Positions 492-42,167 of a DNA stretch of 64,000 nt are shown piece by piece; position 1 is the first letter of the stretch, and the number at the start of each line of letters is the position of its first letter. Made by a program: the position numbers and the translations under genes. Under the pieces are notes generated by a model, which was given only the letters and a program-made list of their open reading frames with translations, had not been told where the DNA came from and made no database searches. Origin of the DNA: Amphiscolops sp. MND2022 (lineage: Eukaryota); the NCBI GenBank assembly GCA_964187785.1, contig OZ076409.1, positions 72,666,001 to 72,730,000 of the forward strand. The letters are read 5' to 3'.

Positions 492-558
492 AACGCCACA
501 TAGTGTTGCGACGTGCACAGTCTGTGGGCATGCCGAGGCATGCCCTTCGACGACGTAT
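492..558 (+). other. Conserved ~70-nt subterminal core (representative of 22 copies, U0-U21)
   Basis: AACGCCACA-N-ACGCCCAC-GTCYGT-RGGCATGCCGAGGCATGCCY-TTCGACGACG, conserved across otherwise unrelated families A, B and C. Confidence 0.9.
526..545. promoter_or_regulatory. Putative p53-family response element / palindrome (representative of 22 copies)
   Basis: GGGCATGCCG AGGCATGCCC matches two adjacent RRRCWWGYYY half-sites at 19/20 positions; binding is not demonstrated. Confidence 0.4.
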
Positions 559-597
559 GCCGAATACCGCGGGCCTACGCCCGCGCTCCCCGGCTAG

Positions 598-656
598 GTG
601 GGCGGGGGTAATTCCCCAACAAAAAAATCGGCCGGCGGGTCGGGTCCTGCCGGCCG
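598..656 (+). other. 5'-terminal double hairpin (representative)
   Basis: GGGG-TAATT-CCCC, then CGGCCGGCGGG-TCGGGT-CCTGCCGGCCG (629-656); structural equivalents follow every junction. Confidence 0.85.
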
Positions 657-4789: not shown

Positions 4790-6140
4790 AAGCCAACTAT
4801 TTTGACCAAAATCCTAAAAATCATACCATTTCCTAAAAATTTTCAAATGCACCCCATTTGACGTATAAGATAAGCACAGAAAACTATCATATACCGATCA
4901 ACTCTACTCCTATTGTAGATTATTAGAATTTTGTTTAGAATGAATTTTGATGAATAATAAAAAAATTTTGAACCCTCCAAAAATGGGCCAAAATTACACG
5001 AAAAAATTGACCTTAAAATACCAAAATGTCAAAAAATCATCAAAACCCAGGCTTCTTGGGGTTCTATCAACTCCGCGTGGTCCACAGAGTATGCTAAAAC
5101 AGGTTTTACCCGTTTTTGAGCAATATGTGAAAAAGCCGACATTTTTGGGAAAGAAAAACATACCATTTCATGAAAAAATTCAAATGCACGTCATTTGCCG
5201 TATTAGAATAGCACAGAAAACTATCACATACCAATCAACTCTACTTTCTTTGCAGATGAACAGAATTTTGTTTAGAATAAATTTTACCGGATAATAAAAA
5301 AATTTGAATCCTTCAAAAATGGGCCAAAAATACACGAAAAAATGGACCTTAAAAATTTAAAATGTCAAAAAATCATCAAAACAACAGCTTCTTGGGGTTC
5401 TATCAACTCCACGAGGTCCACAGAGTATGCTAAAACAGGTTTTACCCGTTTTTGAGCAATATGTGAAAAAGCCGACATTTTTGGGAAAGAAAAACATACC
5501 ATTTCCTAAAAAAATTCTAATGCACGCCATTTGCCGTATGAAAATAGCACAGAAAACTATCACATACCAATCAACTCTACTTTCATTGCAGATGAACAGA
5601 ATTTTGTTTAGAATAAACTTTACCGGATAATAAAAAAAATTGATTCCTTCTAATATGGGCCAAAATTACACGAAAAAATGGACCTTAAAATTTTAAAATG
5701 TCAAAAAATCATCAAAACCACGGCTTCTTGGGGTTCTATCAACTCCACGTGGTCCACAGAGTATGCTTAACCCGGTTTTACCCATCTTTGAGCAAAATGT
5801 GAAAATACCGACATTTTTGGAAAAGAAAAACATGCCATTTTCTAATAAATTTCAAATGCACGCCATTTGCTGTATGAGAATAACACAGAAAGCTGTCACA
5901 TACCGATCAACTCTACTTCCATTGTAGATTATCAGAAGTTTGTTTAGAATAAATTTTGAAGGATAATAAAAAAATTTGAATCCATCAAAAATGGGCCAAA
6001 ATTACACGAAAAAATTGACCTTAAAATATCAAAATGTCAAAAAATCATCAAAACCACAATTTCTTGGCGTTCTATCAACTCCATATGATACCAAACCAGG
6101 TACTGCCAATCGTTTGAGTTATAATAAAAAAACGTCTTTT
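4790..6140 (+). repeat. About 4 copies of a 336-bp internal tandem repeat
   Basis: ATGGGCCAAAA anchor at 4983, 5319, 5655, 5991 (period 336); outer limits approximate. Confidence 0.9.
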
Positions 6141-6415: not shown

Positions 6416-7347
6416 TCGAGAAGCCAAATACGTCCAACATTCAAACTTTTGTAACTTTGTATGTAACTCCTGAAACGAAGAAGGAATAAAATTGTTTCTG
6501 GTACATACATGAGTCTTTACTTCAGCTTCTATTTCTGCTGAACAAAACCATTCGACTCTTTTGCCGGAGTTAAGATCGATTGTATTACCCAGTGAACAAA
6601 GGCATGACTGAAAACGTTTACTACTTTGTTCATAATTTTCTGGCCTTCCGAAATGATGAAACGTCCACATAACTAAGATAGCAAGTGAATGACTGCGAAA
6701 TGCACCTTATTAGATGAGGTAAATAACGTGTAAAACTCTCCTTTATCCTAACATGAGGTTGAGTAATGATCATTTGAGAATAGTTTGATATGTGAATACA
6801 ATAGTATAAAACAAGTACATTTTATATGAATAACGCCGTGGAAAGCGTTCAGAAAGGACAGTAGGCTTGTTTGGAACATGTATGTGTGGTGTCCCTTGGT
6901 GGCGTTCGCTTAGTGTATATGTCGAGGGGTATTCGAGTTGTTATGATAGAATTTACACACAAGTCTTTTGTTTTTTGGTTTTTTTAAAATGTCGTTAAGT
7001 ACCTGCATTCTATCCCCTTCTCAGAGATGACGTGAAGTTACGTTTGCTAAATAAATGTCATCGAAAGATCACACTCCCGACGAAATTAACTATCTTAACA
7101 CGTGTTTAGAATTTTAAATAAACAACCGTATAAGATTTTTATATTTCATTGAGTTTGATGAGGTCTTTTGTTCTTCTCACTACTATTTCAACCAATACAC
7201 ATATCCGTTACCATATCACATGTCTCCATTAGTACAACGCCACATAGCGTTCCGACGCCCACAGTCTGTGGGCATGCCGAGGCATGCCCTTCGACGACGT
7301 ATGGCAAATGGAGCCATGCCCGCCGTCTTTACGGCGGTAGCGGCTAG

Positions 7348-9333
7348 GTGGGCGGGGGTAATTCCCCAACAAAAATTACGGCCGGCGGGTTGGGTCCTGC
7401 CGGACGTTCAAATAGCGCGAAGCATCTAGTAGAAAACAAGGAGTCCTGAAACAGCGATTTTAAAATTGAACCGTTAGAATTTGGTTTTAGATTGCATGCG
7501 GCCCTAAAATCCCCATACGAATGGAAGTTCCTGCTGGCGTTAAGCGATTGAAATAATATATAAAAAGTTATGGCCCATTTTTGGGTCACCGAGAAGGTCA
7601 AAACGAAGAAAATTTTAACTAAGTTGCTGATAACTCAAAATGTGTTAATTTTTGGACTTTGACTGTGAAACAAGCTTGGAACCTTCATTTCGTGGCTGTG
7701 GCATTGCACTGAACACAAAAGATGTAAAGTTTTCACATTTTTTGAAAATTCGACATTTTTGATTTTTTTTTCACTACTATCAGTACACTATATGTCAAAA
7801 ACACCTCTGAAAAATTTTTTTATTTGCCTAAATTTAGAAACCTCGGTATCCATGGTTTCCGTCAGTGCCTACTCGCTGCCAAACACTCAACAGTTTGCAT
7901 CCAATGTGAAAATAAAAATTTTTTCGAGGTCTTAGGTGTTTCACAAGGATTACTCAACTTAGTATCAATTTACAAATTGGTCATTTTGAACACATTATTT
8001 TCATCGAAGCGTGTCATATACCGCCCTAATGCTCACGAACGGGCCTACTGGCAACGTTGGAACCATTTATAGTAATAAAAAGTTTTAAAAATTTTTTTCA
8101 CCCCGTCTTCAGTCATTTTACACACTTTCGGTACTTAACTTAGAAAAATTTCAACCAAAAACCCATTTTTTGTCAAGTCGAAAATTCAAATTCAGCTTTT
8201 TAAGCAAAATAAATAAATCTGACATAACCAGTGGAGCCCATGAAACTCAAAACCACGATTGAGACTGGTATCAATGGCTCCAATAACATATGAGTCGCGA
8301 TAAGACGTTATTTTGAGCAAAACATCTCAATTGAGGTAAACATCTCGCAAGCCAGGGATCACTGTGAAATGTGATTTCATCAAAATTTTACTCATTTTTG
8401 TAAATCACTATGTGCACAGAATGCGTAGGGTGCGTTTCAGCACTATAATGAGGTTTTTGAAGGCATCGAGTTGCTCAAAGGATGGTATGAGACATTTTTG
8501 TCCCATATACTACTGTATTTTCCAAAATTTTTAGCCCAATATCTGGAAATACAAACTTGACAAAATACTGTCAACTACTTTATTCAAAGGTTACAATATA
8601 GATGAACACTGTGGTTGATCAGAAACTTTCATCTCTTTCGTTTTCCGAAATATTTCCCTTCGCATGTGTTACATTTGTAGCAGAAAAAAAAATCGAAACT
8701 GAAAAATACGCTATTTTGCTAAAATGGAATCGCAATGATTGTGCCTAAAAACTTTTTAAATACTTCTAACGCAACTGTACAGACCCAAAATGATTGAAAA
8801 TGCCATTCACAATGCTGACATGTGCTCTTTCTACGATCCTAACTGGACAAGTTTTGCATATTTTTCAAGTACCTGTTAACTGAATCTCGTGATAGCCTTT
8901 TAAGTTGGCCTTGTGTCAACTTGGGAAGGCTATCACATCAAAAAATTTTCAACAAAAATACCTTTTGTTTATTGGAAATGACAGTCGATATATAATTTCG
9001 TGATTCTATACTACCGTTAGTACCTTCCATTAAGTCACCTGACGATTGCATTCAGTCTTTGATAAATACCTATGAACTCGAAGTCATATTTATAATTTTT
9101 GTGCTAAAAATAAACATCAAAATTATCCAATTTATTTAAAATTGAGTCTTTAGCGTTTTTGTTTTACTTTTTCTACTGTTATTAGGCCCATCAACTTCCT
9201 ACAGCCACGCTCTCTGTCATACCGTACAACGCCACATAGTGTTGCGACGTGCACAGTCTGTGGGCATGCCGAGGCATGCCCTTCGACGACGTATGCCGAA
9301 TACCGCGGGCCTACGCCCGCGCTCCCCGGCTAG
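7348..9333 (+). mobile_element. U3: family A cassette, 1986 bp
   Basis: Collinear with U1, same terminal structures. Confidence 0.8.
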
Positions 9334-11319
9334 GTGGGCGGGGGTAATTCCCCAACAAAAAAATCGGCCGGCGGGTTGGGTCCTGCCGGACGTCAAATAG
9401 TGTGAAACATCCAGTAGGAAACGGCGACATAAATCAGCGATTTTAAAATTTAACCGTTAGAATTCGGACTTGGAGTGCATGCGGCCCCAAAATGCCCATA
9501 CGAATCGAAGTTCCTGCTGACGTTAAGCGATAAAAACATTTTATAAAAAGTTATGGCCCATTTTACGTTCACCTATAAGGGTAAAATGAGGAAAATTTTT
9601 ACAAAGTCGCTGATAACTCAAAATACATTAATTTTTGGACTTTGACTGTGAAACAAGCTTAGAACCTTCATTTCGTGGCTGTGGCATTGCACTGAACACA
9701 AAAGATGTAAAGTATTTACATTTTTTGGAAATTCGACGTTTTTGATTTTTTTTCACTACTATCAGTACACTATATGTCAAAAACACCTCTGAAAAAAATT
9801 ATTATTTGCTTAAAATTGGAAACCTTGGTATCCATGGTTTCTGTCGGAACCTACTCGCTGCCAAACACCCAACAGTTTGCATCCAATGTGAAATTAAAAT
9901 TTTTTTCGAGGTCTTAGGTGTTTCACAAGGATTTCTCAACTTAGTTTCAATTTACAAATTGGTCATATTGAACACAATATTTTCATCGAAGCTTGTCAGA
10001 TACCGCCCTAATGCTCACTAATGGGCCTACTCGCAACGTTGGAACCGTTTATAGTAATAGAAAGTTTAAAAAAAATATTTTCACCCGGTCTTCAGTCATT
10101 TTTCAGTCATTCGGAACTTAACTTAGAAAAATTTCGACCAAAATACCCATTTTTTGTCAGGTCGAAAAATCAAATTCAGATTTTTAAGCAAAATTATTTA
10201 CTCTGACGTAACTAGTGGGCCCCATGATACTCAAAAACACGATTGGGACCGGTACCAAGGGCTCCAATTTCATATGAGCCGCGATAAGACGTTATTTTGA
10301 GCAACACGTCTCAATAGAGGTAAACATCTCGCAAGCCTGGGGTCACAGTGAAAAGTAATTTCATCAAGAATTTACTCATTTTTGTCAATCACTATGTGCA
10401 CAGAGTGCGTAGGGTGCGTTTCAGCACTTTAATGAGGTTTTTGAAGGCATCGGTCTGCTCAAGGGGTGGTATGAGACATTTTTTTCCTGTATACTACTGT
10501 ATTTTCCAAAACTTTTAGCCAATTATCTGGAAAAACTAACTTGACAAAATACTTTCAATTACTTTATTCAAAGGTTACAATATAGATGAACTCTGTGGTT
10601 GATCAGAAACTCTCAACTATATTGTTTTCCGGAAAAAATCACTTCGCATCTGTTACATTTGTAGCATGAAAAAAAGCAGAATCTAAAAAATACGCAATTT
10701 TGTTAAAATAGAATCGCGTTGATTGTGCCTAAAAAGTTAATAAACACGTCTGACGCCACCATACAGACCCAAAATGATTGAACATGTCAATCAGAATGCT
10801 GACATGTGTTCTATCTACGATCATGGTTGGACAATTTTTGCATTATTTTCAAGTACCTGTTAACTGAATCTTGTGATAGCCTTTTAAGTTGGCCTTGTGT
10901 CAACTTTGGAAGGCTATCACATCAAAAAATTATCAACAAAAATGCTTTTTGTTTATAGAATGTTGTTTTCGATAAACATTTTTGCGATTCTAAGCTACCG
11001 TTAGTACCTTCCATGAGGTCAGCTAACGATAGCATGCAGTCTCTGATAAAAAAATATGAACTCAATTACATTTTTCTAAAATTTTTCTCAGAGAAAAGTA
11101 CAAATAAATAAAAACAATATAAAATTCTAATCTCAAACAACTATAAATTGTTTGTTTTTCACCGTAATCAGTTTACGACCCATCACCCTATGTCACGGCA
11201 CCGTCATTAGTACAACGCCACATAGTGTTGCGACGTGCACAGTCTGTGGGCATGCCGAGGCATGCCCTTCGACGACGTATGCCGAATACCGCGGGCCTAC
11301 GCCCGCGCTCCCCGGCTAG
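9334..11319 (+). mobile_element. U4: family A cassette, 1986 bp
   Basis: Collinear with U1, more diverged in its 3' third. Confidence 0.8.
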
Positions 11320-14300
11320 GTGGGCGGGGGTAATTCCCCAACAAAAAAATCGGCCGGCGGGTCGGGTCCTGCCGGCCGTCCAAAATCAAAATCCTCCTAG
11401 TAGAAAACGGCATGTCAAACGAGCTATTTTTTTATTTAACCATACGAATTTCACCATTTTTTGCATGCGGCCCTGAAATGGCCATACGAGACGAAGTTCC
11501 TGCTGACGTTTTGCGATGTAAATGTTTTATAAAAAGTTATGGCCTATTTGTCATTCACCTAGAAGGGTAAAATGAGGAAAATTTTAACAAAGTCGCTGAT
11601 AACTCAAAATGTGTTAATTTTTGGACTTTGACTGTGAAACAAGCTTGGAACCTTCATTTCGTGGCTGGGGCATTGGACTGAACACAAAAGATGTAAAGTT
11701 TTTACGTTTTTTGAAAATTCGACATTTTTGAAATTTTTTTCACTACTATCAGTACCCCATATGTCAAAAACACCTCAGAAAAAAATTTTTATTTGCTTTA
11801 AATTGGAAACCTTGGTATCCATGGTTTCTGTCGGAACCTACTCGCAGCCAAACACTTAACAGTTTGCATCCAATGTGAAAATAAAATTTTTTTCGGGGTC
11901 ATAAGCGTTTCACAAGGATTTCTCAACTTAGTATCTATTTACAAATTGGTCATTTTGAACACATTATTTTCATCGAACCGTGTCAGATACCACCCTAATG
12001 CTCACGAATGGGCCTACTGGCAACGTTGGAACCATTTTTAGTAATAGAAAGTATTAAAAAAATATTTTCACCCGGTCTTCAGTCATTTTTCAGACATTCG
12101 GTACTTAACTTAGAAAAATTTCGCATCAAAAACCCATATTTGGTAGGGTCGAAATTTGAAATTCAGTTTTTTATGCAAAATTATTAACTCTGACGTAACC
12201 AGTGGAGCCCATGATACTCAAAATCACGATTGGGACTGGTATCAGTGGCTCCAATAACATATGAGCCGCGATAAGACGTTATTCAGAGCAAACGCTCTAA
12301 ATCGAAGTAAACATCTCTGAAGCCTGGGATCACAGTGAAATGTGATATCACCAAAAGTTTACTCTTTTTTGTCAATCACTATGTACACAGAGTGCGTAGG
12401 GTGAGTTTCAGGACTATAATGAGGTTTTTGAAGTAATCGCGCTGCTCAAGGGGTGGTATGAGACTATTTTTTCCCATAAACTACTACATTTCCATAAATT
12501 TGCAGTCCATTGTCTTGGAAAGATAACTTCACAAAAACAATTTTTGTACTCTATTCAGTTATTAGAATAAAGTTGAACACTGTGGTTGATCAGAAATGCT
12601 CAATTCTTTTGGTTTTTAAAAAAATTCCTTCGCATTCGTTACATTTGTGGAAGGAAGGTTATCAGTAGCTCCAAAAAAAAAACGAAATTTAGCACGAACA
12701 GACATGCAACGATGCAAAGCAAAAACGTTTTTACAACTTCCGACGTCATTATTTTACCCAAGAAGATTGAAAATATCATTCGCAATGCTGTCATTCGCTA
12801 TATATACGATCGCGGTCAATTTACAAACATTTAGATTTCATTGTTCTGCTTGAAAACCAATTTTTGTCAGGTCGAAATTTTAAATTTTGCCTGGGGAGCA
12901 ATACCCTTCACGCTGAAGTAAACAGTGGGGCCCAAGTTACTCAAAAACAAGAAAGAGACTGCTACAATATGTCCTAATAACATATGGACCACGATAGTAC
13001 ACTTTTCACACAAAAAACTCTCATCCGAAGTAAATATGTTGAAAGCTTTTAATCACCGTGAGAAGTGATTTCATCAAAAAGTAACTCTTTTTTGTCAATC
13101 ACTATTTACACAGAATTTGTAAAGTTAGTTTGAGTCATGAAATGAGGCTTTACCGTAATATGGGTTGCTCAAGGTGTTATATAAGACAAAAACTTCCTCT
13201 TTTCTACTAGCTTCTTCAAATATTTCAACCCTTTGTCACAATAAGTTAATATTCAAAATATCTTTGAAATGTATCTTTATGTTGGGGTGAAGTCTAAGAA
13301 CAATAACTATGATCGAAGAATGCTAGTACTGGTGTTTGAACCATGTCCGGATGAACAAATCACAAAATCATCAAAAAATTGTTCCCTTTTTTGGTTATTT
13401 TGGCAGTACTAAAAATGTTAGCTGATAAATAATTTTTTCGATGGCACCATTGGATTCCTCTCAAAAAGTTGGTTATATGACCTGTGTAATAACCCCGTAT
13501 CTTTTCAATTTAAATATATTTAAAAAGCCAACTATTTTGACCAAAATCCTAAAAATCATACCATTTCCTAAAAATTTTCAAATGCACCCCATTTGACGTA
13601 TAAGATAAGCACAGAAAACTATCATTTACCGATCAACTCTACTCCCATTGTAGATTATTAGAATTTTGTTTAGAATGAATTTTGATGGATATTAAAAAAA
13701 TTTTGAACCCTCCAAAAATGGGCCAAAATTACACGAAAAAATTGACCTTAAAATACCAAAATGTCAAAAAATCATCAAAACCACGGCTTCTTGGGGTTCT
13801 ATCAACTCCGCGTGGTCCACAGAGTATGCTAAAACAGGATTTACCCGTTTTTGAGCAATATGTGAAAAAGCCGACATTTTTGGGAAAGAAAAACATACCA
13901 TTTCCTAAAAAAATTCAAATGCACGTAATTTGCCGTATTAGAATAGCACAGAAAACTATCACATACCAATCAACTCTACTTTCATTGCAGATGAACAGAA
14001 TTTTGTTTAGAATAAATTTTACCGGATAATAAAAAAATTTGAATCCTTCAAAAATGGGCCAAAATTACACGAAAAAATGGACCTTAAAAATTTAAAATGT
14101 CAAAAAATCGTCAAAACAACAGCTTCTTGGGGTTCTATCAACTCCACGAGGTCCACAGAGTATGCTAAAACAGGTTTTACCCGTTTTTGAGCAATATGTG
14201 AAAAAGCCGACATTTTTGGGAGAGAAAAACATACCATTTCCTAAAAAAATTCAAATGCACGCCATTTGCCGTATGAAAATAGCACAGAAAACTATCACAT

Positions 14301-16090
14301 ACCAATCAACTCTACTTTCATTGCAGATGAACAGAATTTTGTTTAGAATAAATTTTACCGGATAATAAAAAAATTAGATTCCTTCTAAAATGGGCCAAAA
14401 TTACACGAAAAAAAGGACCTTAAAATTTTAAAATGTCAAAAAATCATCAAAACCACGGCTTCTTGGGGTTCTATCAACTCCACGTGGTCCACAGAGTATG
14501 CTTTATAGAGAGAATAATACCCGGTTTTACCCATCTTTGAGCAAAATGTGAAAATACCGACATTTTTGGAAAAGAAAAAAATACCATTTTCTAATAAATT
14601 TCAAATGCACGCCATTTGCTGTATGAGAATAACACAGAAAGCTGTCACATACCGATCAACTCTACTTCCATTGTAGATTATCAGAAGTTTGTTTAGAATA
14701 AATTTTGATGGTTAATAAAAATAATTGAATCCATCAAAAATGGGCCAAAATTACACGAAAAAATTGACCTTAAAATATCAAAATGGCAAAAAATCATCAA
14801 AACCACAGTTTCTTGGCGTTCTATCAACTCCATATGATACCAAACCAGGTACTGCCAATCGTTTGAGTTATAATAAAAAAACGTCTTTTTTGGCAAGAAT
14901 TCCATACCATAAATAATGTTCCATAGAAGAAGCGAATCATTTCAGATATATACCCTGTTCATTTTTTTAATATTACCGATTATTAATTTAATAGATGTTT
15001 TGAATGTGAGCTTCCTAAAAGGTTCAGGTGTGATGTTACGTAAATAGAACCTTAGTTTCATCGAAATCTCAATTGAATATGTCCAATCCTAACCATCAGA
15101 TAACAAGAAACACTTAAGTACATTCCATCTCCCCATCGGGGGAGATGAGAATGTACTTTCGAGAAGCCAAATACGTCCAACATTCAAACTTTTGTAACTT
15201 TGTATGTAACTCCTGAAACGAAGAAGGAATAAAATTGTTTCTGGTACATACATGAGTCTTTACTTCAGCTTCTATTTCTGCTGAACAAAACCATTCGACT
15301 CTTTTGCCGGAGTTAAGATCGATTGTATTACCCAGTGAACAAAGGCATGACTGAAAACGTTTACTACTTTGTTCATAATTTTCCGGCCTTCCGAAATGAT
15401 GAAACGTCCACATAACTAAGATAGCAAGTGAATGACTGCGAAATGCACCTTATTAGATGAGGTAAATAACGTGTAAAACTCTCCTTTATCCTAACATGAG
15501 GTTGAGTAATGATCATTTGAGAATAGTTTGATATGTGAATACAATAGTATAAAACAAGTACATTTTATATGAATAACGCCGTGGAAAGCGTTCAGAAAGG
15601 ACAGTAGGCTTGTTTGGAACATGTATGTGTGGTGTCCCTTGGTGGCGTTCGCTTAGTGTATATGTCGAGGGGTATTCGAGTTGTTATGATAGAATTTACA
15701 CACAAGTCTTTTGTTTTTTGGTTTTTTTAAAATGTCGTTAAGTACCTGCATTCTATCCCCTTCTCAGAGATGACGTGAAGTTACGTTTGCTAAATAAATG
15801 TCATCGAAAGATCACACTCCCGACGAAATTAACTATCTTACCACGTGTTTAGAATTTTAAATAAACAACCGTATAAGATTATTATATTTCATTGAGTTTG
15901 ATGAAGTCTTTTGTTCTTCTCACTACTATTTCAACCAATACACATATCCGTTACCATATCACATGTCTCCATTAGTACAACGCCACATAGCGTTCCGACG
16001 CCCAAAGTCTGTGGGCATGCCGAGGCATGCCCTTCGACGACGTATGGCAAATGGAGCCATGCCCGCCGTCTTTACGGCGGTAGCGGCTAG
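11320..16090 (+). mobile_element. U5: family A-long cassette, 4771 bp (U1/U2 mosaic)
   Basis: First ~600 bp match U1, remainder nearly identical to U2; H2 hairpin ~15116-15158. Confidence 0.8.
13525..14890 (+). repeat. About 4 copies of the ~336-bp internal tandem repeat
   Basis: Same repeat as 4790-6140. Confidence 0.85.
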
Positions 16091-18077
16091 GTGGGCGGGG
16101 GTAATTCCCCAACAAAAAAATCGGCCGGCGGGTCGGGTCCTGCCGGCCGTCCAAAATCAAAATTATACTAGTAGAAAACGGCCGGTCAAACGAGCTATTT
16201 TTTTATTTAACCGTTAGAATTTGGGTTTAGATTGCATGCGGCCATGAAATGGCCATACGAATCGAAGTTCCTGTTGACGTTTTGCGATTGAAACACTTTA
16301 TAAAAAGTTATGGCCAATTTGTCAGTCACCTAGAAGGGCAAAATGAGGAAAATTTTAACAAAGTCGCTGATATCTCAAAATGTGTTAATTTTTGGACTTT
16401 GACTGTGAAACAAGCTTGGAACCTTCATTTCGTGGCTGTGGCATTGCACTGAACACAAAAGCTGTAAAGTTTTCACATTTTTTGAAAATTCGACATTTTT
16501 GAAATTTTTTTCACTACTATCAGTACCCCATATGTCAAAAACACCTCAGAAAAATTTTTTTATTTGCTTTAAGTTGGAAACCTTGGTATCCATGGTTTCT
16601 GTCGGAACCTACTCGCAGCCAAACACCCAACAGTTTGCATCCAATGTGAAATAAAAAATTTTTTCGAGGTCATAAGCGTTTCACAAGGTTTTCATGATTT
16701 AGTATTAAATTACATAGTGGTCATTTTAAACATAAAATTTTGGTCCAGGCATGTCGGATATAGTCTGAATGCTCACGAACGGTCCTACTGGCAACGTAGG
16801 AACCATTTATAGTAATAAAAAGTATTAAAAATTTTTTTCACCCGGTCTTCAGTCATTTTTCAGATATTCGGAACTTAACTTAGAAAATTTTCGAACCAAA
16901 TACCCATTTTTTGTCAGGTCGAAAATTGAAATTCAGCTATTAAAGCAAAATTTTTTACTCTGACGTAACCAGTGGGGTCCATGATACTCAAAAATACGAT
17001 TGGGACTGGTACCAATGGCTCCTATATCATATGAGCCGCGATAAGACGTTATTTTGAGCAATACGTCTCAATTGAGGTAAACATCTCGCAAGCCTGGGAT
17101 CACAGTGAAATGTAATTTCATCAAAAAATTACTCATTTTCGTCAATCACTATGTGCATAGAGTGGGTAGGGTGAGTTCCAACACTATAATGAGGTTTTTG
17201 AAGGCATCGGGTTGCTCAAGGGGTGGTATGAGTCATTACTTTCCTATATACAACTGTATTTTCAAAAACTTTTAGCCCATTATCTGGAAAAACTAACTTG
17301 ACAAAATACTTTCAATTACTTTATTCAAAGGTTACAATATAGATGAACACTGTGGTTGATCAGAAACTTTCATCTCTTTCGTTTTCCGAAATAACTCCTT
17401 TCAAATGTGTTACATTTGTAGCAGGAAAAAAAACTGAAACTAAAAAATACGCGATTTTGCTGAGATAGAATCGCAATGGTTGCGCCTAAAATCTCTTTAA
17501 AAACTTCTAACGCAGCCTTATGGACCCAAAATGATTGAAAATGCCATTCACAATGCTGACATGTGCTCTTTCTACGATCCTGGCTGGACAAGTTTTGCAT
17601 TTTTTTCAAGTACCTGTTAACTGAACATTGTGATAGCCTTTCAAGTTGGCCTTGTGTCAACTTGGGAAGGCTGTCACATCAAAAAACTGTCCACAAAAAT
17701 ACCATTTGTTTATAGGATATTGCTGTCGATGCTTCACTTCGTGATTCGATCATGTCGTGAGTTCCTTCCATCAGGTCAGCTAACATTTGGATTCAGTGTT
17801 GGATAAGAACCTATGATTTTCATGACAATTTTCGTTTTTTTTTGCCAACAAAAAGTACAAATAAATGATATAAAACATATTTGTAACCTCTAGGAAGTTT
17901 AACTTTACCTTTTTTACCGTTACCATCACAACCCACCCCCTACGACCTCGCAGTGTCCTCATTACAACGCCACATAGTGTAGCGACGCCCACAGTCTGTG
18001 GGCATGCCGAGGCATGCCCTTCGACGACGTATGCCAAAAATAGCGCCCTCCGCGGTCACTACCGCGGTAGCAGCTAG
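16091..18077 (+). mobile_element. U6: family A cassette, 1987 bp
   Basis: Nearly identical to U12; 3' part shared with U16. Confidence 0.8.
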
Positions 18078-20073
18078 GTGCGGGGGGGAAACCCCAACAA
18101 AATTTTTGGAGGATTCGGGTAGGGTCCTGAATCCGAGTTCAGTGCTGCCAGCTTTCGTTAAGAAAATTTGGATAGGATTCGGGATCTCGTGATCTAACCA
18201 TAGGATTTTAAAGTTGGAGCGGCCCCCACCAGATTTTCCGAAAATTAGCGCCCCCCACCGGGTTCCATACCCCGGAAAATTTTTTTCTGGCCACACGGGC
18301 GACCGTTAGGGGGTCATTTTAGGGGTAAAATTCATATTGGGCCACATAACTTTTTTTCTGTTGATTTAAAACTTTGGGACCCTGCTAAAAGTTTCTTGAC
18401 CGTGTTGCAGGGGCCCCGGAGGTCCAAACCAAATTTTTCTATCTTGAAGCTATCTCCAAGTACCCCCCCGCCCAAAACGTTATTTTTCCGGAAACGCAGG
18501 TTTTTGACCCGGAAGGAGTCGTCTGAGCGCGGGGTCGTTAGGTGATGTATTGGGGACGGCCTTGAGACGAAGCGGGGGACATGTAGTTTGCCGACCCCTG
18601 TTTACCCCCCGGACGGGAAATGACCGTTATTTGAGCGGGAAAAATGCCCCCCTCCACGTTTTACCGCTATTTCCGGTGTGAAGGAGTGGGAGTAGCGCGT
18701 CGGGTGCCATATATCAAAAGTAGGTTTAGACAAGGATCTATCGGAAACATGTAGTTTGGGACCCCCTGGACCAACCCGTTAGCAGGAAATGGGGCTTCCG
18801 GCCCGTTTTTTTACGGTTAAAAACGGAAAATGGGCATTGAGGGGTAAATATCTCGTGAACGCGTGGAGCTACGGTGTCCTTCACTACTACAAGGTTTCAT
18901 ACCCATGATATGGTGCCTTCAGGGGGGCAAACAGATTTCCGCTATCTATCACCGTTACGGACTTGGCCCCCCAGCCTAACCGCTATGTGACCGGAAATTG
19001 CACTTTTTGAGCCCAAAGGGTCGATCCTAGCCGGGCAACGTTAGGTAACTTATTGTAGTACTCATTGAAACGAGTTGGGGGACATAGTTTCAGTCACCCC
19101 CCGTTACCTCTTAGGACCGGAAATGACCGTTATGAGGGTAAAATTGCAATTTTTATACATTTTGAAGGGCATTTAGGTGCGGAAGGAATGGTAATAGGTG
19201 CTTGGACACTATATGATGTAATGGAGGTCGTGAGGAGAGCATTCGGAAGTAACCGTTACGTTGACCCCAAAGTCCCCCTGGTACCGTTAACAACCGGAAA
19301 TTGCCAAATTTTGTGTTTATAAGGTACAAATGTTTGGTATTTTATGGATAAAAGTACCTGGAAGGTGTTTTAAAGGCCTCCAGAAGTGAACATAGTCATG
19401 AAACTTTGTGGGGGGTAACGGTATATAGCACCGGAAGTCCAAACCGTTGGTCACAGAATAGGTTTTTTGGTTTCAAAACGTCTTTAGGCGTAGTTTTGTG
19501 GGTTGAATCGTCATAATATCAACTAATACGGACTTTTTTCGGAAATAAAATTTTTTCACATTAGTTTCAGGGACCTCCAATGTTTCAGTCAACATAACCG
19601 TTACATTTTGATAGCCTTTCAAGTTGGCCTGGTGTCAACTTGGAAGGACTATCCTTCAAAAATCATTAATCAAGTGTGTTTTTGAGTATGTTTGTATTAC
19701 TTTAGAATCAATTAGAGCTTCAAGAAAAGTTTGCCAACGACAAAAACTATGTCGTGATGATTCCGTTATTAGAATACTTGTTAACAAAGTTTTAAAAACG
19801 TTGATTTTTTACATTTCAAATGTGTCCTAAATGCCAGAAAACCTCTTTACCAAACAAATGGTATTGATTGAATTGTTTATAACAGCTAATAAAAGTTCAA
19901 ACTGAATATTACGTTTCATTTTGGAAGCTGAAACGTCATTTTATAGTTTCATTAACGTCAACGCCACATACTTTACATCAACGCCCACCGTCCGTAGGCA
20001 TGCCGAGGCATGCCTTTCGACGACGTATACCAAATTCCTTTAACACAACACCCTCGAGCGCGGTAGCAGCTAG
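18078..20073 (+). mobile_element. U7: family B cassette, 1996 bp
   Basis: Starts GTGCGGGGGGGAAACCCC; GC-richer body not alignable by eye to A, rich in CCGTTA and CCGGAA; shares H1 hairpin (~19610) and core with A. Confidence 0.8.
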
Positions 20074-22065
20074 GTGCGGGGGGGAAACCCCATCCCTTAT
20101 CTTGGAGGATTCGGGTAGGGTCCTGAATCCGAGTTCAGTGCCGCCAGCTCTCAGTAGAAATCTGGGAAATTTTTTGCGATCTCGTGATCTAACCATAGGA
20201 TTTTAAAGTTGGAGCGGCCCCCACCAGATTTTCCAAAGTTATTCGCCCCCCACCGGGTTCCAGCGTGATTGAAATATTTTGACGGGGTACACGGGCGACC
20301 GTTAGGGGTCATTTTGGGGGTAAAATTTATATCCGGTCGCATAACTTTTTTCCTGTTGGATTAAAACTTTGGGACCCTGCTAAAAGTTTCTTGACCGTGT
20401 TGCGGGGGCTCCGGAGGTCCAAACCAAATTTTTCTGTCTTGAAGCTATCTCCAAGTACCCCCCCGCCCAAACCGTTATTTTTCCGGAAACGCAGGTTTTT
20501 GACCCGGAAGGAGTCGTCTGAGCGCGGGGTCGTTAGGTGATGTATTGGGGACGGCCTTGAGACGAAGCGGGGGATATATAGTTTGCCGACCCCAGTTTAC
20601 CCCCCGGACGGGAAATGACCGTTATATGAGCGGGAAAAATGCCCCTTCCACGTTTTACCGCTATTTCCGGTGTGAAGGAGTGGGAGTAGCGCTTCGGGTG
20701 CCATGTATCAAAAATAAGTTTAGACAAGGACCTATCGGAAACATGTAGTTTGGGACCCCCTGGACCAACCCGTTAGCGGGAAATGGGGCTTCCGCCTCCT
20801 TTTTTTACTGCTAAAACCGTAAAATGGGCATTGAGGGGTAAATATCTCGTGAACGCGTGGAGCAATCGTGTCCATCACTACTACAAGGTTTCATACCCAT
20901 GATATGGTGCCTTCAGGGGGGCAAACAGATTTCCGCTATCTATCACCGTTACCGACTTGGCCCCCCAGCCTAACCGCTATGTGACCGGAAATGTCACTTT
21001 TTGAGCCCAAAGGGTCGGTCCCAGCCGGGGAACGTTAGGTAACTTATTGTAGTACTCAATGAGACGAGTTGGGGGATATAGTTTCAGTCAACCCCCGTTA
21101 CCCCTTGGGACCGGAAATGACCGTTATGTGGGTAAATTTGCAATTTTTATACTCTTTGAAGTGTATTTAGGTGCGGAAGGAGTGGTAATAGGTGCTTGGA
21201 CACTATATGATGTAATGGAGGTCGTGAGGAGAGCATTCGGAAATAACCGTTATGTTGACCCCAAAGTCCCCCTGGTACCGTTAACGACCGGAAATGGCCA
21301 AATTTTGTGTCTATTGGGTACAAATGTTTGGTATTTTATAGATAAAAGTACCTGGAAGGTGTTTTAAAGGCCTCCAGAAGTGAACATAGTCATGAAATCT
21401 TGTGGGGGGTAACGGTATATAGCACCGGAAGTCCAAACCGTTGGTCACAGACTAGGTTTTTTGGTTTCAAAATGTCTTTAGGCATAGTTTTGTGGGTTGA
21501 ATCGTCATAATATCAACTAATACGGACTTTTTTCGGAAATAAAATTTTTTCACATTAGTTTCAGGGACCTCCAATGCTTCAGTCAACATAACCGTTACAT
21601 TTTGATAGCCTTTCAAGTTGACCTGGTGTCAACTTGGAAGGGCTATCCTTCTAAAATCGTTAATCAAGATTGTTTTTGGGTAGGTATATGTTGCATTAGT
21701 ACCAATTAGAGCTTCATCAACAGTTTGCCAACGGCAAAAACGATGTCGTGATAATTCCGTTATAAAAATATTAGTTAACAAATTGTTTTCAAAGTTGATT
21801 TTTTCCATTAAAAATGTGTCCTAATGCCACCAAATTGAATAAAATAATAAATGGTATTGACTAAAACTAAATAACAATGAAAAAGAAGATCAACATTTTT
21901 ATTAGGTCTCATTATGGAAGCTGAAACCTCACGTTTTAGTTTAATTAACGTCAACGCCACATACTTTACATCAACGCCCACCGTCTGTGGGCATGCCGAG
22001 GCATGCCCTTCGACGACGTATACCAAACAACCTCCATATCTACACCCACCCGCGGTAGCTGCTAG
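20074..22065 (+). mobile_element. U8: family B cassette, 1992 bp
   Basis: Collinear with U7. Confidence 0.8.
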
Positions 22066-24039
22066 GTGCGGGGGGGTAACCCCTACAAAGATATTGGAGG
22101 ATTCGGGTAGGGTCCTGAATCCGATTTTAACTCTAATAGCTATCGATAGGAAATCCTGCAAAAATTTCGGGATCTCGTGATCTAACCATAGGATTTTAAA
22201 GTTGGAGCGGCCCCCACCAGATTTTCCAAAGTTATTCGCCCCCCACCTGGTTCCAGCGTGATTGAAATATTTTGACGGGGTACACGGGCGACCGTTAGGG
22301 GTCATTTTGGGGGTAAAATTTATATCCGGTCGCATAACTTTTTTCCTGTTGGTTTAAAACTTTGGGACCCTGCTAAAAGTTTCTTGACCGTGTTGCAGTG
22401 GCTCCGGAGGTCCAAACCAAATTTTTCTATCTTGAAGCTATCTCCAAGTACCCCCCCGCCCAAACCGTTATTTTTCCGGAAACGCAGGTTTTTGACCCGG
22501 AAGGAGTCGTCTGAGCGCGGGGTCGTTAGGTGATGTATTGGGGACGGCCTTGAGACGAAGCGGGGGACATGTAGTTTGCCGACCCCTGTTTACCCCCCGG
22601 ACGGGAAATGACCGTTATTTGAGCGGGAAAAATGCCCCCCTCCACGTTTTACCGCTATTTCCGGTGTGAAGGAGTAGGCGTAGCGCGTCGGGTGTTATAT
22701 AACAAAAGTAGGTTTAGACAAGGACCTATCGGAAACATGTAGTTTGGGACCCCCTGGACCAACCCGTTAGCGGGAAATGGGGCTTCCGCCTCCTTTTTTT
22801 ACTGCTAAAACCGTAAAATGGGCATTGAGGTGTAAATATCTCGTGAACGCGTGGAGCTACGGTGTCCATCACTACTACAAGGTTTCATACCCATGATATG
22901 GTGCCTTCAGGGGGGCAAACAGATTTCCGCTATCTATCACCGTTACCGACTTGGCCCCCCAGCCTAACCGCTATGTGACCGGAAATGTCAATTTTTGAGC
23001 CCAAAAGGTCGGTCTCAGCCAGGGAACGTTGGGTAACTTATTGTAGTACTCATTGAGACGAGTTGGGGGACATAGTTTCAGTCACCCCCCGTTACCCCTT
23101 AGGACCGGAAATGACCGTTATGTGAGTAAAATTGCCATTTTTGTCCTATTTGAAGGGCATTTAGGTGCGGAAGGCGTGGTAATAGGTGCTTGGACACTAT
23201 ATGAGGTAAGGGAGGACGTGAGGCGAGCTTTCGGAATTAACCGTTATGCTGACCCTAAAGTCCCCCTGGTACCGGAAGTGACCCGTAATGGTCAAATTTT
23301 GTGTTTAAAGGGTACAAATGTTTGGTGTTTTATGGATAACAGTGCCTATTAGGTGTTTCGACGGTCTGCAGTCGTGAACATAGTCATGAAACCTTGTGGG
23401 GGGTAACGGTTTATAGCACCGGATGTCCAAACCGTTGGAGACAGGATAAGTTTTTTGGTTTTAAAATGTCTTTCGGCCTACTTTTGTCGACTATTATGGA
23501 CTATTTTTGGAAAATAAAGTTTTTCCAAATAGTTTCAGAGACTCCGAAACCTCAACCAACATAACCGTTACCTTATGATAGCCTTTCAAGTTGGCCTGGT
23601 GTCAACTTGGAAGGGCTATCCTTCAAAAATCATTAATCAAGTGTGTTTTTGAGTATGTTTGTATTACTTTAGAATCAATTAGAGCTTCAAGAAAAGTTAG
23701 CCAACGATAAAACTATGTCGTGATGATTCCGTTATTAGAATAATAGTTAACAAAATATTAATAAAGTTGATTTTTTACACTTTAAATGTGTTCTAAATGC
23801 CAGAAAACTTCTTTACCAAACAAATGGAATTGATTGAATTGTATATAACAGCTAATAAAACTTCAAATTGAATATTAGGTTTCATTATGGAAGCTGAAAT
23901 GTCATATTATAGTTTCAATAATGTCAACGCCACATACTTTACATCAACGCCCACCGTCTGTGGGCATGCCGAGGCATGCCCTTCGACGACGTATACCAAA
24001 TTCCTCCAACACAACACCCCCGAGCGCGTTAGCAGCTAG
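22066..24039 (+). mobile_element. U9: family B cassette, 1974 bp
   Basis: Collinear with U7 and U8. Confidence 0.8.
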
Positions 24040-25317
24040 GTGGTCGTTAGCATGGGATTTTCTTTATGAGCGTAGTCCACTTTTTTTAGGCCGGGGTAGG
24101 GTCCCGGGCCGTTACCAATTTCTTACGGAGGAAAAATGTGAAAATCTGCGAGTTTAAAAAATTGGCCCGTACGATTTGGCTGAAAATTGGCATACAGCAT
24201 CGCCTTGGTAAACAAATGACTTTGTCCTAGTGACATTTTGCCCAGAAAATTCAAAAAGTTGGTCAAATTGAAAATTTTTTGACCGTCTAAGGCTAAAATT
24301 TGACTTTTTCGCTTTTTTTGGTCAATTTCCTCAGAACTGGTTGATTTTGGTGAAGTAAGTCATAAGAGGTTATAAGGTCTGCAAATAGCCATCAATTGGC
24401 TTGCATAATCAGATTTTGTCAAAAGTGTTTAGTTTTTTCAAAATTTCACACTTTTTTTTCATTTCAGTGTTTTTTGATACAATTTATTGAATTTTTACTA
24501 AGTTCCACTAAATATTTTTAAAATGTTTTTAAAAAACCTTTTTTTGCACGTTTTTGATGTTTTTTGCTCTCCCATATAGGTTTTCGCATACGGGGAACCT
24601 GAATCTGACAACGAAATAATTTTATTCCGCAGTTCAACTTACGCCATTTTTAATAGTGAAAAATCACTCATTTTCAATCTAACGAGTGAAAATATCAGAA
24701 TTTAAAAACCTAAAGTTGAGTTTAAGGCGACTTACAGGTAGAAACAAATGCTCAGAAACAAACTGATTTCTTGTATTAGCTAAAGAAAGCCTTTAAAATT
24801 CTTTTTACTTTCTTTAAATCAAAATTCGACACTTTTCATGAAATTTGTCAGTGGAAAAAATTTATCATTTTTTAAATTAAAAACTTGCTTTGTTGGTCAT
24901 TTCCGTTAGTCATTAGTAGCTGTGTAATGCTCCAAAGCCTTTCAAGTTCTTTTGACCCTATTTGAAAGTTTTTGATACTGCATAATCAATCCGAGAGAAC
25001 GAAACAGTTGTGTACATTCCATCTCCCTCTTGGGGGAGATGAGAATGTACTTCCTAAAGTCCAGGTACTACAGATCATATTTGGTTTTATGCGACGCCCT
25101 CTATGCTAGTGCATATAAATACAAGTTGTTTGGCTGGATTTTGCTTCTGACTTGACGTATACTGTACGTTTGGTACTGACAATACCCATCATTTACATAA
25201 CAAACGTCAACGCCACATACCCTTACCAACGCCCATAGTCCGTAGGCATGCCGAGGCATGCCTTTCGACGACGCGCGCCAAACACAAGCGCGCCCGCACT
25301 TTTGCGGTAGCGGCTAG
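24040..25317 (+). mobile_element. U10: family C cassette, 1278 bp (single copy)
   Basis: Unique very AT-rich body; 5' GGGTAGGGTCC hairpin; H2 hairpin 25012-25050; variant core; CTAG end. Confidence 0.75.
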
Positions 25318-28300
25318 GTGGGCGGGGGTAATTCCCCAACAAAAAAATCGGCCGGCGGGTCGGGTCCTGCCGGCCGTCCAAAATCAAAATCCTCCTAGTA
25401 GAAAACGGCATGTCAAACGAGCTATTTTTTTATTTAACCATTAGAATTTCACCATTTTTTGCATGCGGCCCTGAAATGGCCATACGAGACGAAGTTCCTG
25501 CTGACGTTTTGCGATGTAAATGTTTTATAAAAAGTTATGGCCGATTTGTCATTCACCTAGAAGGGTAAAATGAGGAAAATTTTAACAAAGTCGCTGATAA
25601 CTCAAAATGTGTTAATTTTTGGACTTTGACTGTGAAACAAGCTTGGAACCTTCATTTCGTGGCTGTGGCATTGCACTGAACGCAAAAGATATAAAGTTTT
25701 TACATTTTTTGAAAATTTGACATTTTTGAAATTTTTTTCACTACTATCAGTATCATATATGTCAAAAACACCTCAGAAAAAAAAATTTATTTGCTTTAAC
25801 TTGGAAACCTTGGTATCCATGGTTTCTGTCGGAACCTACTCGCAACCAAACAACCAACAGTTTGCATCCAATGTGAAAATAAAAACTTTTTCTGGGTCAT
25901 AAGCGTTTCACAAGGATTTCTCAACTTAGTATTAATTTACAAAATGGTCATTTTGAACACAATATTTTCATCGAGGCTTGTCGGCTATAGCCTTAATGTT
26001 CTAGAACGGTCCCACTGGCAACGTAGGAACCATTTATAGTAATAGAAAGTTTAAAAAATATATTTTCACCCTGTCTTCAGTCATTTTTCAGTCATTCGGA
26101 ACTTAACTTAGAAAAATTTCGACCAAAATACCCATTTTTTGACAGATCGAAAATTCAAATTCAACTTTTTAAGCAAAATTATTAACTCTGACGTAACCAG
26201 TGGGGCTCATGATACTCAAAAACACGATTGGGACTGGTACCAATGGCTCCAATATCATATGAGCCGCGATAAGACGTTATTTTGAGCAATACGTCTCAAT
26301 TGAGGGAAACATCTCGCAAGCCTGGGATCACAGTTAAAAGTGATTTCGTCAAAAATTTACTCTTTTTCGTCTATCACTATGTACACAGAGTGCGTAGGGT
26401 GAGTTTCAGCACTATAATGCGGTTTTTGAAGGAATCGGTCTGCTCAAGGGGTGGTATGAGACATTTTTTTTGCATGTAGTACTATATTTCCTAAAAGTTT
26501 TAGCCCATTATCTCGAAAAGCTCACTTCGCAAATTACTTTCAGTTACTCTATTCGAAGCTTAGAATATATATGAACACTGTGGTTGATCAGAAACTCTTG
26601 ACTATTTTGTTTTTGGAAAAAAACTGCCTTGCATGTGTTACATTAGTGGCAGGAAAAATACCAGTAGCTCCAAAAATCACAATTTTGGACGGACAGACCT
26701 GCAATGATGCAAAGCAAAAACGTTTCAACAACTTCTGGCGCCACTTTTTTTACCCAAGAGGTTCGAAATTACTATTAACAATGCTGACATTCGCTATATA
26801 TAAGATCGAGGACAATTTACTAACACTTAGGTTATACATTTATATCAGAGAAACCATTCTTTGTCAGGTCGCAATTTTAAATTCAGTTTGGGAAGCAATA
26901 CTTTTCACTCTGAAGCAAACCGTTGGGCCCAAATTACTCAAAAACTACAAAAAGACTGTCACCAAATGCCCTAATAGCATATGAGATTCGACCGTATGTT
27001 TTTAACACAAAAACTCTCATCCGAAGTAAACATGTTGAAAGCCTTGAATCACCGTGAGAAATGATTTCATCAAAAAATATCCCTTTTTCGTCAATCTTTA
27101 TCTACACAGAACACGTTGTGTCATTTTCAGCCGTGAAATGAGCTTCTACCGTAATATGGGTTGCTCAAGGTGTTGTATAAGACAAAAACTTCCTCTTTTC
27201 TACTATCTTCTTCAAATATTTCAACCCTTTGTCACAAGAAGTTAATATTCAAAATCTCTTTGAAATGTTTCTTTAGGTTGGTGTGAAGTGTTAGAACAAT
27301 AATTATGATCGAAGAATGATAGTATTGGTGTTTGGACCATGTCCGGATGAACAAATTGCAAAATCATGAAAAATTTCTTACCATTTTTGGTCATTTTGTC
27401 AGTACTAAAAATGTTAGCTGAAAAAGAATTTTTTTGATGGCACCATTGGATTCCTCTCAAAAAGTTAGCTATATGAACTGTGTAATAACCCCGTATCTTT
27501 TCAATTTAAATAATTTTAAAAAGCAAACTTTTTTGACTAAAATCCTAAAAATCATACCATTTCCTAAAAAATTTCAAATGCCCCCCATTTGACGTATAAG
27601 AATAGCACAGAAAACTATCACATACCGATCGACTCTACTTCCATTGTAGATTACCAGAATTTTGTTAAGAACAATTTTTGACGGATGCAAAAAAATTTAA
27701 ACCCTCCAAAAAAGGGCCAAAATTACACGAAAAAATTGACCTTAAAATTTTAAAATGTCGAAAAATCATCAAAACCACAGCTTCTTGGGGTTCTATCAAC
27801 TCCACGTGGTCCACAGAGTATGTTAAAACAAGTTTTACCCGTATTTGAGCAATATGTGAAAAAGCCGACTTTTTTGGGAATGAAAAACATACCATTTCCT
27901 AAAAAATTTCAAACGCACCCCATTTGACGTATAAGAATAGCACAGAAAACTATCACATACCGATCGACTCTACTTCCATTGTAGGTTACCAGAATCTTGT
28001 TTAGAACAATTGTTGACGGATGCAAAAAAAAAATTAAACCCTCCAAAAATGGGCCAAAATTACACGAAAAAATTGACCTTAAATTTTTAAAATGTCAAAA
28101 AATCATCAAAATCACAGCTTCTTGGGGTTCTATCAACTCCACGTGGTCCACAGAGTATGCTAAAACAGGTTTACCTGTTTCTGAGCTATATGTGAAAAAA
28201 CCGACATTTTGGGGAAGAAAAACATACCATTTCCTAAAAAATTTCAAATGCACGCCATTTGCTGTATGAGAATAGCACAGAAAACTATCACATACCGATC

Positions 28301-42005: not shown

Positions 42006-42167
42006 GTGCGGGGGGGAAACCCCAACAAAATTTTTGGAGGATTCGGGTAGGGTCCTGAATCCGAGTTCAGTGCTGCCAGCTTTCGTGTGCGGGGGGGAAA
42101 CCCCAACAAAATTTTTGGAGGATTCGGGTAGGGTCCTGAATCCGAGTTCAGTGCTGCCAGCTTTCGT
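42006..42167 (+). repeat. Exact 81-bp tandem duplication of the cassette 5' end
   Basis: 42006-42086 equals 42087-42167; both begin GTGCGGGGGGGAAACCCC. Confidence 0.95.

Follow-up and report, generated by a model that had tools for sequence, protein, structure and literature searches.

The window analyzed here, a 64-kb stretch of DNA (1–64000, + strand), is one head-to-tail array of 28 units in a single orientation, the first and last of which are cut by its edges, and 22 of these units carry close to their 3′ junction a 20-nt sequence that we predict to be a near-optimal site for a p53/p63/p73-family tetramer of the host. Building on what can be read directly, namely the sequence, the unit ends, covariation, the arrival of units one at a time and the predicted affinity, we tentatively interpret the units as rolling-circle transposons, non-autonomous and Helitron-like, which belong to several families with a common pair of ends; several of these types also hold the p53-type site. 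Its near-constancy in otherwise unrelated units suggests that copying of the elements may be coupled to stress signaling in the host.

Neighboring units meet at CT[A/G]G|GTG junctions, all 27 of which lie on the + strand and open a unit with a related head (25 CTAG, 2 CTGG; in the window as a whole, GTG follows 25 of 79 CTAG and 2 of 127 CTGG). The first junction, CTAG|GTG at 594–600 (+), is cut between 597 and 598, and successive units start at 598, 2588, 7348, 9334, 11320, 16091, 18078, 20074 and 22066 (U01–U09), at 24040, 25318, 30079, 32068, 34063, 36056, 38038, 40028 and 42006 (U10–U18), and, in the order listed, at 44081, 46872, 48842, 50836, 51908, 52978, 54049, 55081 and 59976 (U19–U27). 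An all-against-all BLAST of the 28 units sorts them into at least eight non-coding element types: A (10 units, 1978–1995 nt when complete, GC 0.37), B (7 units, 1970–1996 nt, one being 2075 nt with a duplication; GC 0.45), B2 (1 unit, 2791 nt), C (3 units, 4760–4771 nt, A-like over the first 1.4–1.5 kb and then made of 336-bp repeats), D (1 unit, 1278 nt), E (1072 nt), F (1070 and 1071 nt), G (1032 nt) and H (one unit of 4895 nt and one cut unit). Types A and B have about 7% of their length in common (the ends and one internal hairpin), yet are equally long. The type order along U00–U21 (AACAACABBBDCAABAAABBBB, with B2 scored as B) is not regular, and the clustering of same-type neighbors (10 of 21, p 0.10) is not significant. 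Two ORFs of at least 150 aa occur in the window, with no coding sequence recognized, and none of the stop-to-stop frames scanned against Pfam (20 of 45) scored above its curated cut-off; a frame in U19 at 45834–46238 (−) gave a weak match (21.5 versus 25 bits at the curated cut-off), which we attribute to chance.

A pattern search of the 64-kb window places RGGCATGCCGAGGCATGCCY at 22 positions (526 to 50759) with 0 mismatches, all on the + strand, and thereby bears out the sequence-only reading, which had described the 20-mer as essentially invariant in U0–U21. Allowing up to 3 mismatches gains only the same 22 places on the opposite strand, and 100 dinucleotide shuffles give a chance expectation of 0.00. 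Nineteen copies have G and C at their two ends (G..C form, all + strand pattern matches): 526–545 (U00, type A, p53-family-type), 2510–2529 (U01, A), 7270–7289 (U02, C), 9262–9281 (U03, A), 11248–11267 (U04, A), 16013–16032 (U05, C), 18000–18019 (U06, A), 21989–22008 (U08, B), 23962–23981 (U09, B), 30002–30021 (U11, C), 31990–32009 (U12, A), 33985–34004 (U13, A), 35980–35999 (U14, B), 37966–37985 (U15, A), 39949–39968 (U16, A), 41940–41959 (U17, A, with the upstream C variant described below), 44005–44024 (U18, B), 48768–48787 (U20, B) and, as the final copy, 50759–50778 (U21, B). The remaining three take an A..T form, again as + strand pattern matches, at 19996–20015 (U07, B), 25244–25263 (U10, D) and 46795–46814 (U19, B2). 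A p53 site is defined in the cited passage as two RRRCWWGYYY decamers with a spacer of 0–13 (PMC3485254). The 19/20 match to this consensus that had been claimed earlier is found in all 22 copies with spacer 0; in both halves of every copy, C4 and G7 are intact around an AT center, both cores being CATG.

The 20-mer was previously described as ending 22 consecutive cassettes. While the number 22 stands, another 46–59 nt separate the 20-mer from the 3′ junction of its unit (U00–U21), and the array continues with five complete units (E, F, F, G, H; 50836–59975, +) and a partial one, which have the same junction and head motifs and no 20-mer. In these units the best spacer-0 match to the consensus is 17/20. 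We discarded a unit boundary at the 20-mer itself, since the linker downstream of it travels with the upstream body (U06/U12) and an 81-nt duplication, described below, fixes the cut at CTAG|GTG.

Conservation extends over a 36-nt block (520–555, +, in U00), from 6 nt upstream to 10 nt downstream of the 20-mer, which is alike in all 22 copies bar 3 positions (33 of 36 invariant; three haplotypes, 18/3/1), contrary to the earlier statement that the flanks vary. The 16 flanking bases lie outside the p53 consensus and are as conserved as the 20-mer, and the G at position 10, its sole off-consensus base, is also invariant, which is tighter than p53 requires. On both sides of the block the same copies diverge strongly. 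In type A, which has 60% invariant columns, the block forms a 36-column invariant run, the longest of that type; in type B alone, the invariant run at the 20-mer measures 18 nt versus 57 nt elsewhere, and the 20-mer is not the longest. An upstream C variant occurs in 3 of 3 A..T copies, in 1 of 19 G..C copies, and in a fourth A..T copy on a metagenome contig (L001). Because all A..T copies carry one linked haplotype, the covariation is counted once; most simply, the paired A..T change is one event spread by recombination. The earlier argument from this variant thus keeps its three coordinates and its preserved end pair, and loses most of its weight. Short CG-containing direct motifs flank the 20-mer at 490–520 and 546–555 (and in the copies). 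Type A heads open with what we take to be a GC-box-like stretch, and the junction region may be a composite promoter.

We scored affinity with the per-base costs measured for human p53 in Table 2 of PMC2275157, a matrix that may not be the host's. On this human matrix, the G..C and A..T forms lie a predicted 0.16 and 0.26 logKd from the optimum (predicted logKd −7.45 and −7.35, respectively); the tightest natural site among those listed in the Table 3 passage has −7.35 (PMC2275157). Functional p53 sites lie mostly within 1.5 logKd of the best site (PMC2807882), a range that includes both forms of the 20-mer when scored for human p53. By the same scoring, no other position in the 64 kb comes closer to the optimum than a dlogKd of 0.79, which is also the best value in the units that lack the 20-mer. 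The A..T change, the sole change seen in the 20-mer, affects positions 1 and 20 and costs 0.05 each on the human matrix. DNA specificity is described as conserved across p53, p63, p73 and fly p53, and GGGCATGCCC is given as the tightest half-site of zebrafish p53 (PMC2807882).

A random 20-mer comes within 0.16 logKd of the optimum with a chance of 0.2–2.5e-9, a random perfect 9-bp hairpin with 0.5–2.3e-5 (2–6e-5 for a dlogKd of up to 0.26), and a random doubled 8-mer palindrome with 0.7–2.1e-3. The 20-mer is more than a hairpin, because a random 9-bp hairpin reaches such a p53 score about once in 100,000. A dimer of dimers reads such a doubled symmetry, repeated every 10 bp, and a hairpin has no such need. 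The p53 motif was picked after the fact; assuming ten conserved hairpins and a hundred factor families, the hairpin-only reading is left with at most a few percent. Of the two readings proposed from the sequence alone, a p53-family site or a palindrome or hairpin resembling one, the former therefore fares better (random-hairpin chance 0.5–6e-5), and the covariation argument is weak.

The heads follow one order, GTG, a G4/C4 hairpin, and then a second hairpin around a conserved loop, as in U01, with hairpin 1 (G4-loop-C4) at 605–617 (+) and hairpin 2 at 629–656 (+). The arms of hairpin 2 change compensatorily between types: 39 of 50 arm pairs are Watson-Crick versus 21.2 when permuted, and 0 of 20000 permutations score as high. 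These pairs were counted on the loop anchor, as MAFFT did not keep the head hairpin in register; the arm pairs in the test number 10 distinct ones, of which 3 pair poorly in the register used, and U19 and U27 were dropped because their loops do not fit the anchor. Other hairpins of the units also covary. Each body contains one long imperfect hairpin that lies 240–1040 nt before the 3′ end and could be a second-strand origin or processing signal. It comes in four interchangeable kinds: P1 in types A, B, B2 and H (153–197 in U00), P2 in C, D and L001 (6373–6415 in U02), P3 in F and G (52712–52757 in U23) and P4 in E (51636–51682), with a P1 variant with perfect 18-bp arms in U26 (58937–58975), all on the + strand. 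Type C units further hold a 336-bp internal tandem repeat (4817–6083, +; further copies at 13552–14832 and 27548–28882) and type H units one of 353–362 bp (60766–61974, +; also 56379–57053), the internal periods being 168/336/503 bp and 353–362 bp. Such periods, along with a low GC content and CpG that shows no decay, would be in keeping with an invertebrate animal as host.

In the tails of U00–U21, the 36-nt block is followed by a variable linker. A, C and D units add a GC-rich hairpin, varied in sequence, that ends 10–12 nt before CTAG; in U00, this Helitron-type terminal hairpin lies at 568–585 (+) and ends 12 nt before the unit end. Folding of 22 distinct tails shows 9 that beat 95% of shuffles (p ≤ 0.05) and 13 that do not, significant hairpins being clear in A, C and D and mostly absent in B and E–H. 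Terminal inverted repeats between unit head and tail do not exceed chance, the best sub-terminal 12-mers (8–10/12 in 26 of 26 complete units) equal those of shuffled heads, and no head-tail direct repeat stands above chance in a comparison that a repeat of 4–6 nt would escape. On L001, the tail block, a P2 hairpin and the head motif lie between two bodies that are absent from the window. The junction at L001:880–886 reads CGAG|GTG, so that relatives have no strict need of the T in CTRG. A degenerate core can be recognized about 100–240 nt into the units starting at 50836, 51908, 54049, 55081 and 59976, at L001:990–1090 and, by eye, also behind the heads of A and B, pointing to a putative shared ancestry of all heads.

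Five of five non-adjacent pairs at 96–98% identity (U02/U05, U06/U12, U06/U16, U12/U16 and U14/U21) have neighbors that are of another type or only 79–85% alike. Because near-identical units have unlike neighbors, we conclude that units arrived singly; block duplication by unequal crossing-over is rejected on the same grounds. Some units are mosaic (the first 700 columns for U03/U13 and the first 600 for U01/U16), and U14/U21, at 98% identity, are unlike over the last 50 nt. Recent homogenization of mosaic units could mimic selection. The two adjacent F units (51908–54048) are near-identical in their first ~600 nt and last 30 nt and differ in between. The head of U18 contains an exact 2 × 81-nt duplication (42006–42167, +), the only stray head in the window, whose second copy lacks a preceding CTAG; the bases before and after the copies differ, leaving no edge homology. 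Because the duplication begins at the first base of U18, the cut is fixed at CTAG|GTG. This single case, possibly an assembly error, is fitting for aborted + strand synthesis and religation.

We infer the enzyme, the circles, the self-targeting, the binding and its sign as follows. A rolling-circle, Helitron-like step is probable: an HUH (Rep-helicase) transposase acting in trans would nick the + strand at CTRG|GTG and stay on the GTG 5′ end, and the released circle would carry the same CTRG|GTG junction as is found between units. Because origin and target would share their sequence, arrays would accept any family, and circles could join existing arrays unit by unit. In U18, synthesis may have proceeded 81 nt from the CTAG 3′-OH before the new end was joined to the displaced strand. 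Whether in an array or in a circle, the 20-mer would lie 46–59 nt upstream of the next origin, and a factor bound there could open that origin, or transcribe it, in the germline or in cells with damage; the p53/p63-type factor would perhaps be joined by another one on the flanking bases. That the 20-mer is bound by a p53-family protein seems somewhat more likely than not, whereas a benefit of such binding to the element is a tentative proposal, by which copies with an intact site would be copied more often and the site would stay unchanged across unrelated bodies. It is doubtful that the elements form an undescribed GTG...CTRG rolling-circle branch for which the junction is the only target, which assembles integron-like mixed arrays from interchangeable modules, and in which p53/p63, through a site upstream of every origin, either licenses copying or is titrated.

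Alternatively, the 20-mer and its flanks could be a site of the element's own machinery, either a hairpin in the displaced strand or a target of a transposase dimer of dimers, with a likeness to p53 sites that is due to chance. We consider this unlikely, although folding gives the 20-mer an 8-bp stem (z −2 to −3) and the A..T change keeps the end pair, every other conserved block of the units is a hairpin with compensatory changes, and the conserved 36 nt exceed the length of a p53 site. A hairpin needs neither self-palindromic arms (chance 0.4–0.7%) nor a p53 fit within 0.26 of the optimum (2–6e-5), and the outer pairs are missing from the centroid fold of the G..C form. An essential transposase site, in particular, is unlikely because the distance to the junction floats (46–59 nt, a variation of 13 nt) and because the 20-mer is absent from five complete units that share this junction, both of which suit a regulatory site better than a cleavage determinant; in 24 of 27 units, in contrast, the head hairpin loop keeps a fixed distance of 38–40 nt to the junction. 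A genuine p53-family site could also have been captured once from host DNA and carried passively, useless to the element and kept uniform by recombination. Tails do swap between bodies (U14/U21 and many patchwork pairs), only three block haplotypes exist, and Helitrons are described as capturing promoters (PMC4778049). The same copies nevertheless diverge strongly on both sides of the block, the invariant 36-column run of type A against 60% invariant columns argues for constraint, and L001 has the same block among unrelated bodies, which makes passive carriage quite unlikely.

Binding might, conversely, work against the array or around it, with the host silencing it through a p53-family protein, or with the many sites titrating the protein and thereby sparing cells with nicked DNA. 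p53 can repress transposons. The array holds 22 near-optimal predicted sites in 50 kb, and decoy roles of transposon-borne sites have been speculated upon for C. elegans (PMC8896005). Copying elements should lose a repressive site, however, yet this is the best-kept block across types, and CpG decay of the kind that silencing by methylation would leave is absent (o/e 1.05 and 0.87); we regard the proposal as improbable. The least probable of the explanations considered replaces the rolling circle with site-specific recombination of circles by a tyrosine recombinase, Crypton- or integron-like, and leaves the role of the 20-mer as a question apart. The cassette-like order with precise junctions would agree with it, as would the long palindromes P1 and P2, which have 5–6-nt centers and resemble recombinase sites, and animal Cryptons are described as having no terminal repeats (PMC3212892). 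No unit switches type at P1, though, despite P1 being common to A and B, a constant dyad around the junction is absent, and the tails with hairpin and CTAG, together with the head-precise 81-nt duplication, fit HUH chemistry.

Canonical Helitrons (HLE1) are among the closest known elements. In Helraiser, a 19-bp palindrome lies 11 nt before the CTAG of the right end, and circles have precise head-to-tail junctions (PMC4778049); tandem Helitron arrays are described in plants and bats (PMC5876387). Like Helraiser/Helibat1, our units have a CTRR 3′ end with, in many of them, a hairpin about 11 nt before it, and they share with HLE1, as portrayed in the cited passages, the lack of inverted ends, the head-to-tail junctions, tandem arrays and non-coding derivatives sharing ends (PMC4778049, PMC5876387, PMC11417382). 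The polarity inferred from the 81-nt duplication is also that drawn for Helraiser (PMC4778049). Canonical Helitrons start with TC and insert at A|T, whereas HLE2 elements have short inverted ends and insert at TT (PMC11417382, PMC4067079). Here, in contrast, units start with GTG (27 of 27 junctions and L001), no A|T target is seen, the internal junctions being G|G with no array edge in the window, heads have two covarying hairpins, arrays mix at least eight types unit by unit, many tails have no hairpin, and L001 ends in CGAG rather than CTRR. Similar to non-autonomous Helentrons (HINE/DINE-1, Cg_HINE), the units are non-coding with terminal hairpins (PMC4067079, PMC7492417), and their 168/336/503-bp and 353–362-bp repeats recall the internal 160–180-bp repeats of the oyster elements (PMC7492417). 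Helentrons and other HLE2 elements differ in their sub-terminal inverted repeats of 11–18 nt, none of which rises above chance here, and in T-rich ends, TT insertion and dispersed copies, as opposed to CTRG|GTG junctions and no T-rich flanks. The units thus fall outside both definitions, and we call them Helitron-like in working without assigning them to HLE1 or HLE2.

Telomeric elements of the HeT-A/TART type have poly(A) 3′ ends and variable 5′ truncation, whereas the units here are precise at both ends, without poly(A) and in narrow length classes. Mixed families in tandem are common to both our array and the HeT-A/TART/TAHRE arrays of Drosophila (PMC10088271), and target-specific Helitrons are found at Paramecium chromosome ends (PMC13085455). 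Two Dada families likewise insert in tandem, giving several families at one site (PMC3706591), but into small-RNA genes with a 6–7-bp duplication; the 64 kb contain 0 Rfam matches and no junction duplication. We also compared the units with Cryptons and Replitrons and matched them to neither. Fungal and oomycete Cryptons have 4–6-bp terminal direct repeats and a tyrosine recombinase (PMC3212892); no recombinase partner was seen in the window, where a short shared repeat is indistinguishable from the junction without an array edge. Replitrons of algae, plants and stramenopiles have short direct repeats at or near their ends and a Rep partner (PMC10288648), while neither a Rep partner nor a head-tail direct repeat above chance was seen here, where one of 4–6 nt would not show.

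p53 sites are reported in transposons such as zebrafish EnSpm-N6_DR and human LINE1, Alu and LTR elements, EnSpm-N6_DR resembling our units as a non-autonomous DNA element with a p53 consensus site (PMC3485254). The site here differs from these in being near-optimal by prediction, shared by unrelated bodies, placed beside the junction, and tandem rather than dispersed near genes. Host stress-factor sites on rolling-circle elements also have a precedent in the HSF-1 sites of C. elegans Helitrons (PMC8896005), although the factor differs and our units have a single sub-terminal site, and a wheat Helitron is activated by heat (PMC13286980). In the literature searched, mostly open-access and largely by title, we came across neither a rolling-circle element described as carrying a p53 site nor a description of mixed GTG...CTRG arrays. 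The p53 sites known from transposons serve mostly as raw material from which hosts build gene regulation; here the pattern is reversed, in that unrelated bodies keep one near-optimal predicted site next to the junction, as though it were of use to the element. Should binding and an effect on circles hold true, the array would offer a direct test of mobile DNA exploiting p53-family activation in germline or damaged cells, and would bear on the idea that the ancestral job of the p53 family concerned transposons. The array itself, with precise self-targeting by many families, would give Helitron-like elements a new type of end structure and a new rule of targeting and, given its transposase, could provide a site-specific integration system. 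Such arrays are missed by tools that seek TC...CTRR or inverted ends.

No transposase, array edge or empty site was seen within the window, and scans of sequence collections found no Rep-helicase partner sharing these ends. Four of five scans of the viral contig collection were blank and the other returned 3 GC-rich chance matches without similarity to the units; both scans of the prokaryote genome contig collection were blank, as were the plasmid and phage collections for 17900–21000. The metagenome scan yielded one contig, L001. Sequencing runs with this DNA came down to a single one (X1, share 0.15), and no RNA run was among those listed. Among 34 sequencing-run contigs over 21900–27500 (5 at 99% or above), one joint skips type D, which we set aside as too weak, with 39 letters on its short side. 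A second p53-like match (19/20, spacer 1) at 6863–6883 and 15606–15626, in 2 of 3 type C units, was rejected as a real site and is taken as chance. Finally, unrelated bodies converge in length, with A (598–2587) and B (18078–20073) at about 1.97–2.00 kb, E, F and G (50836–55080) at 1.03–1.07 kb, and C and H at 4.76–4.90 kb, which may reflect a limit on the size of circles or of nucleosome arrays.
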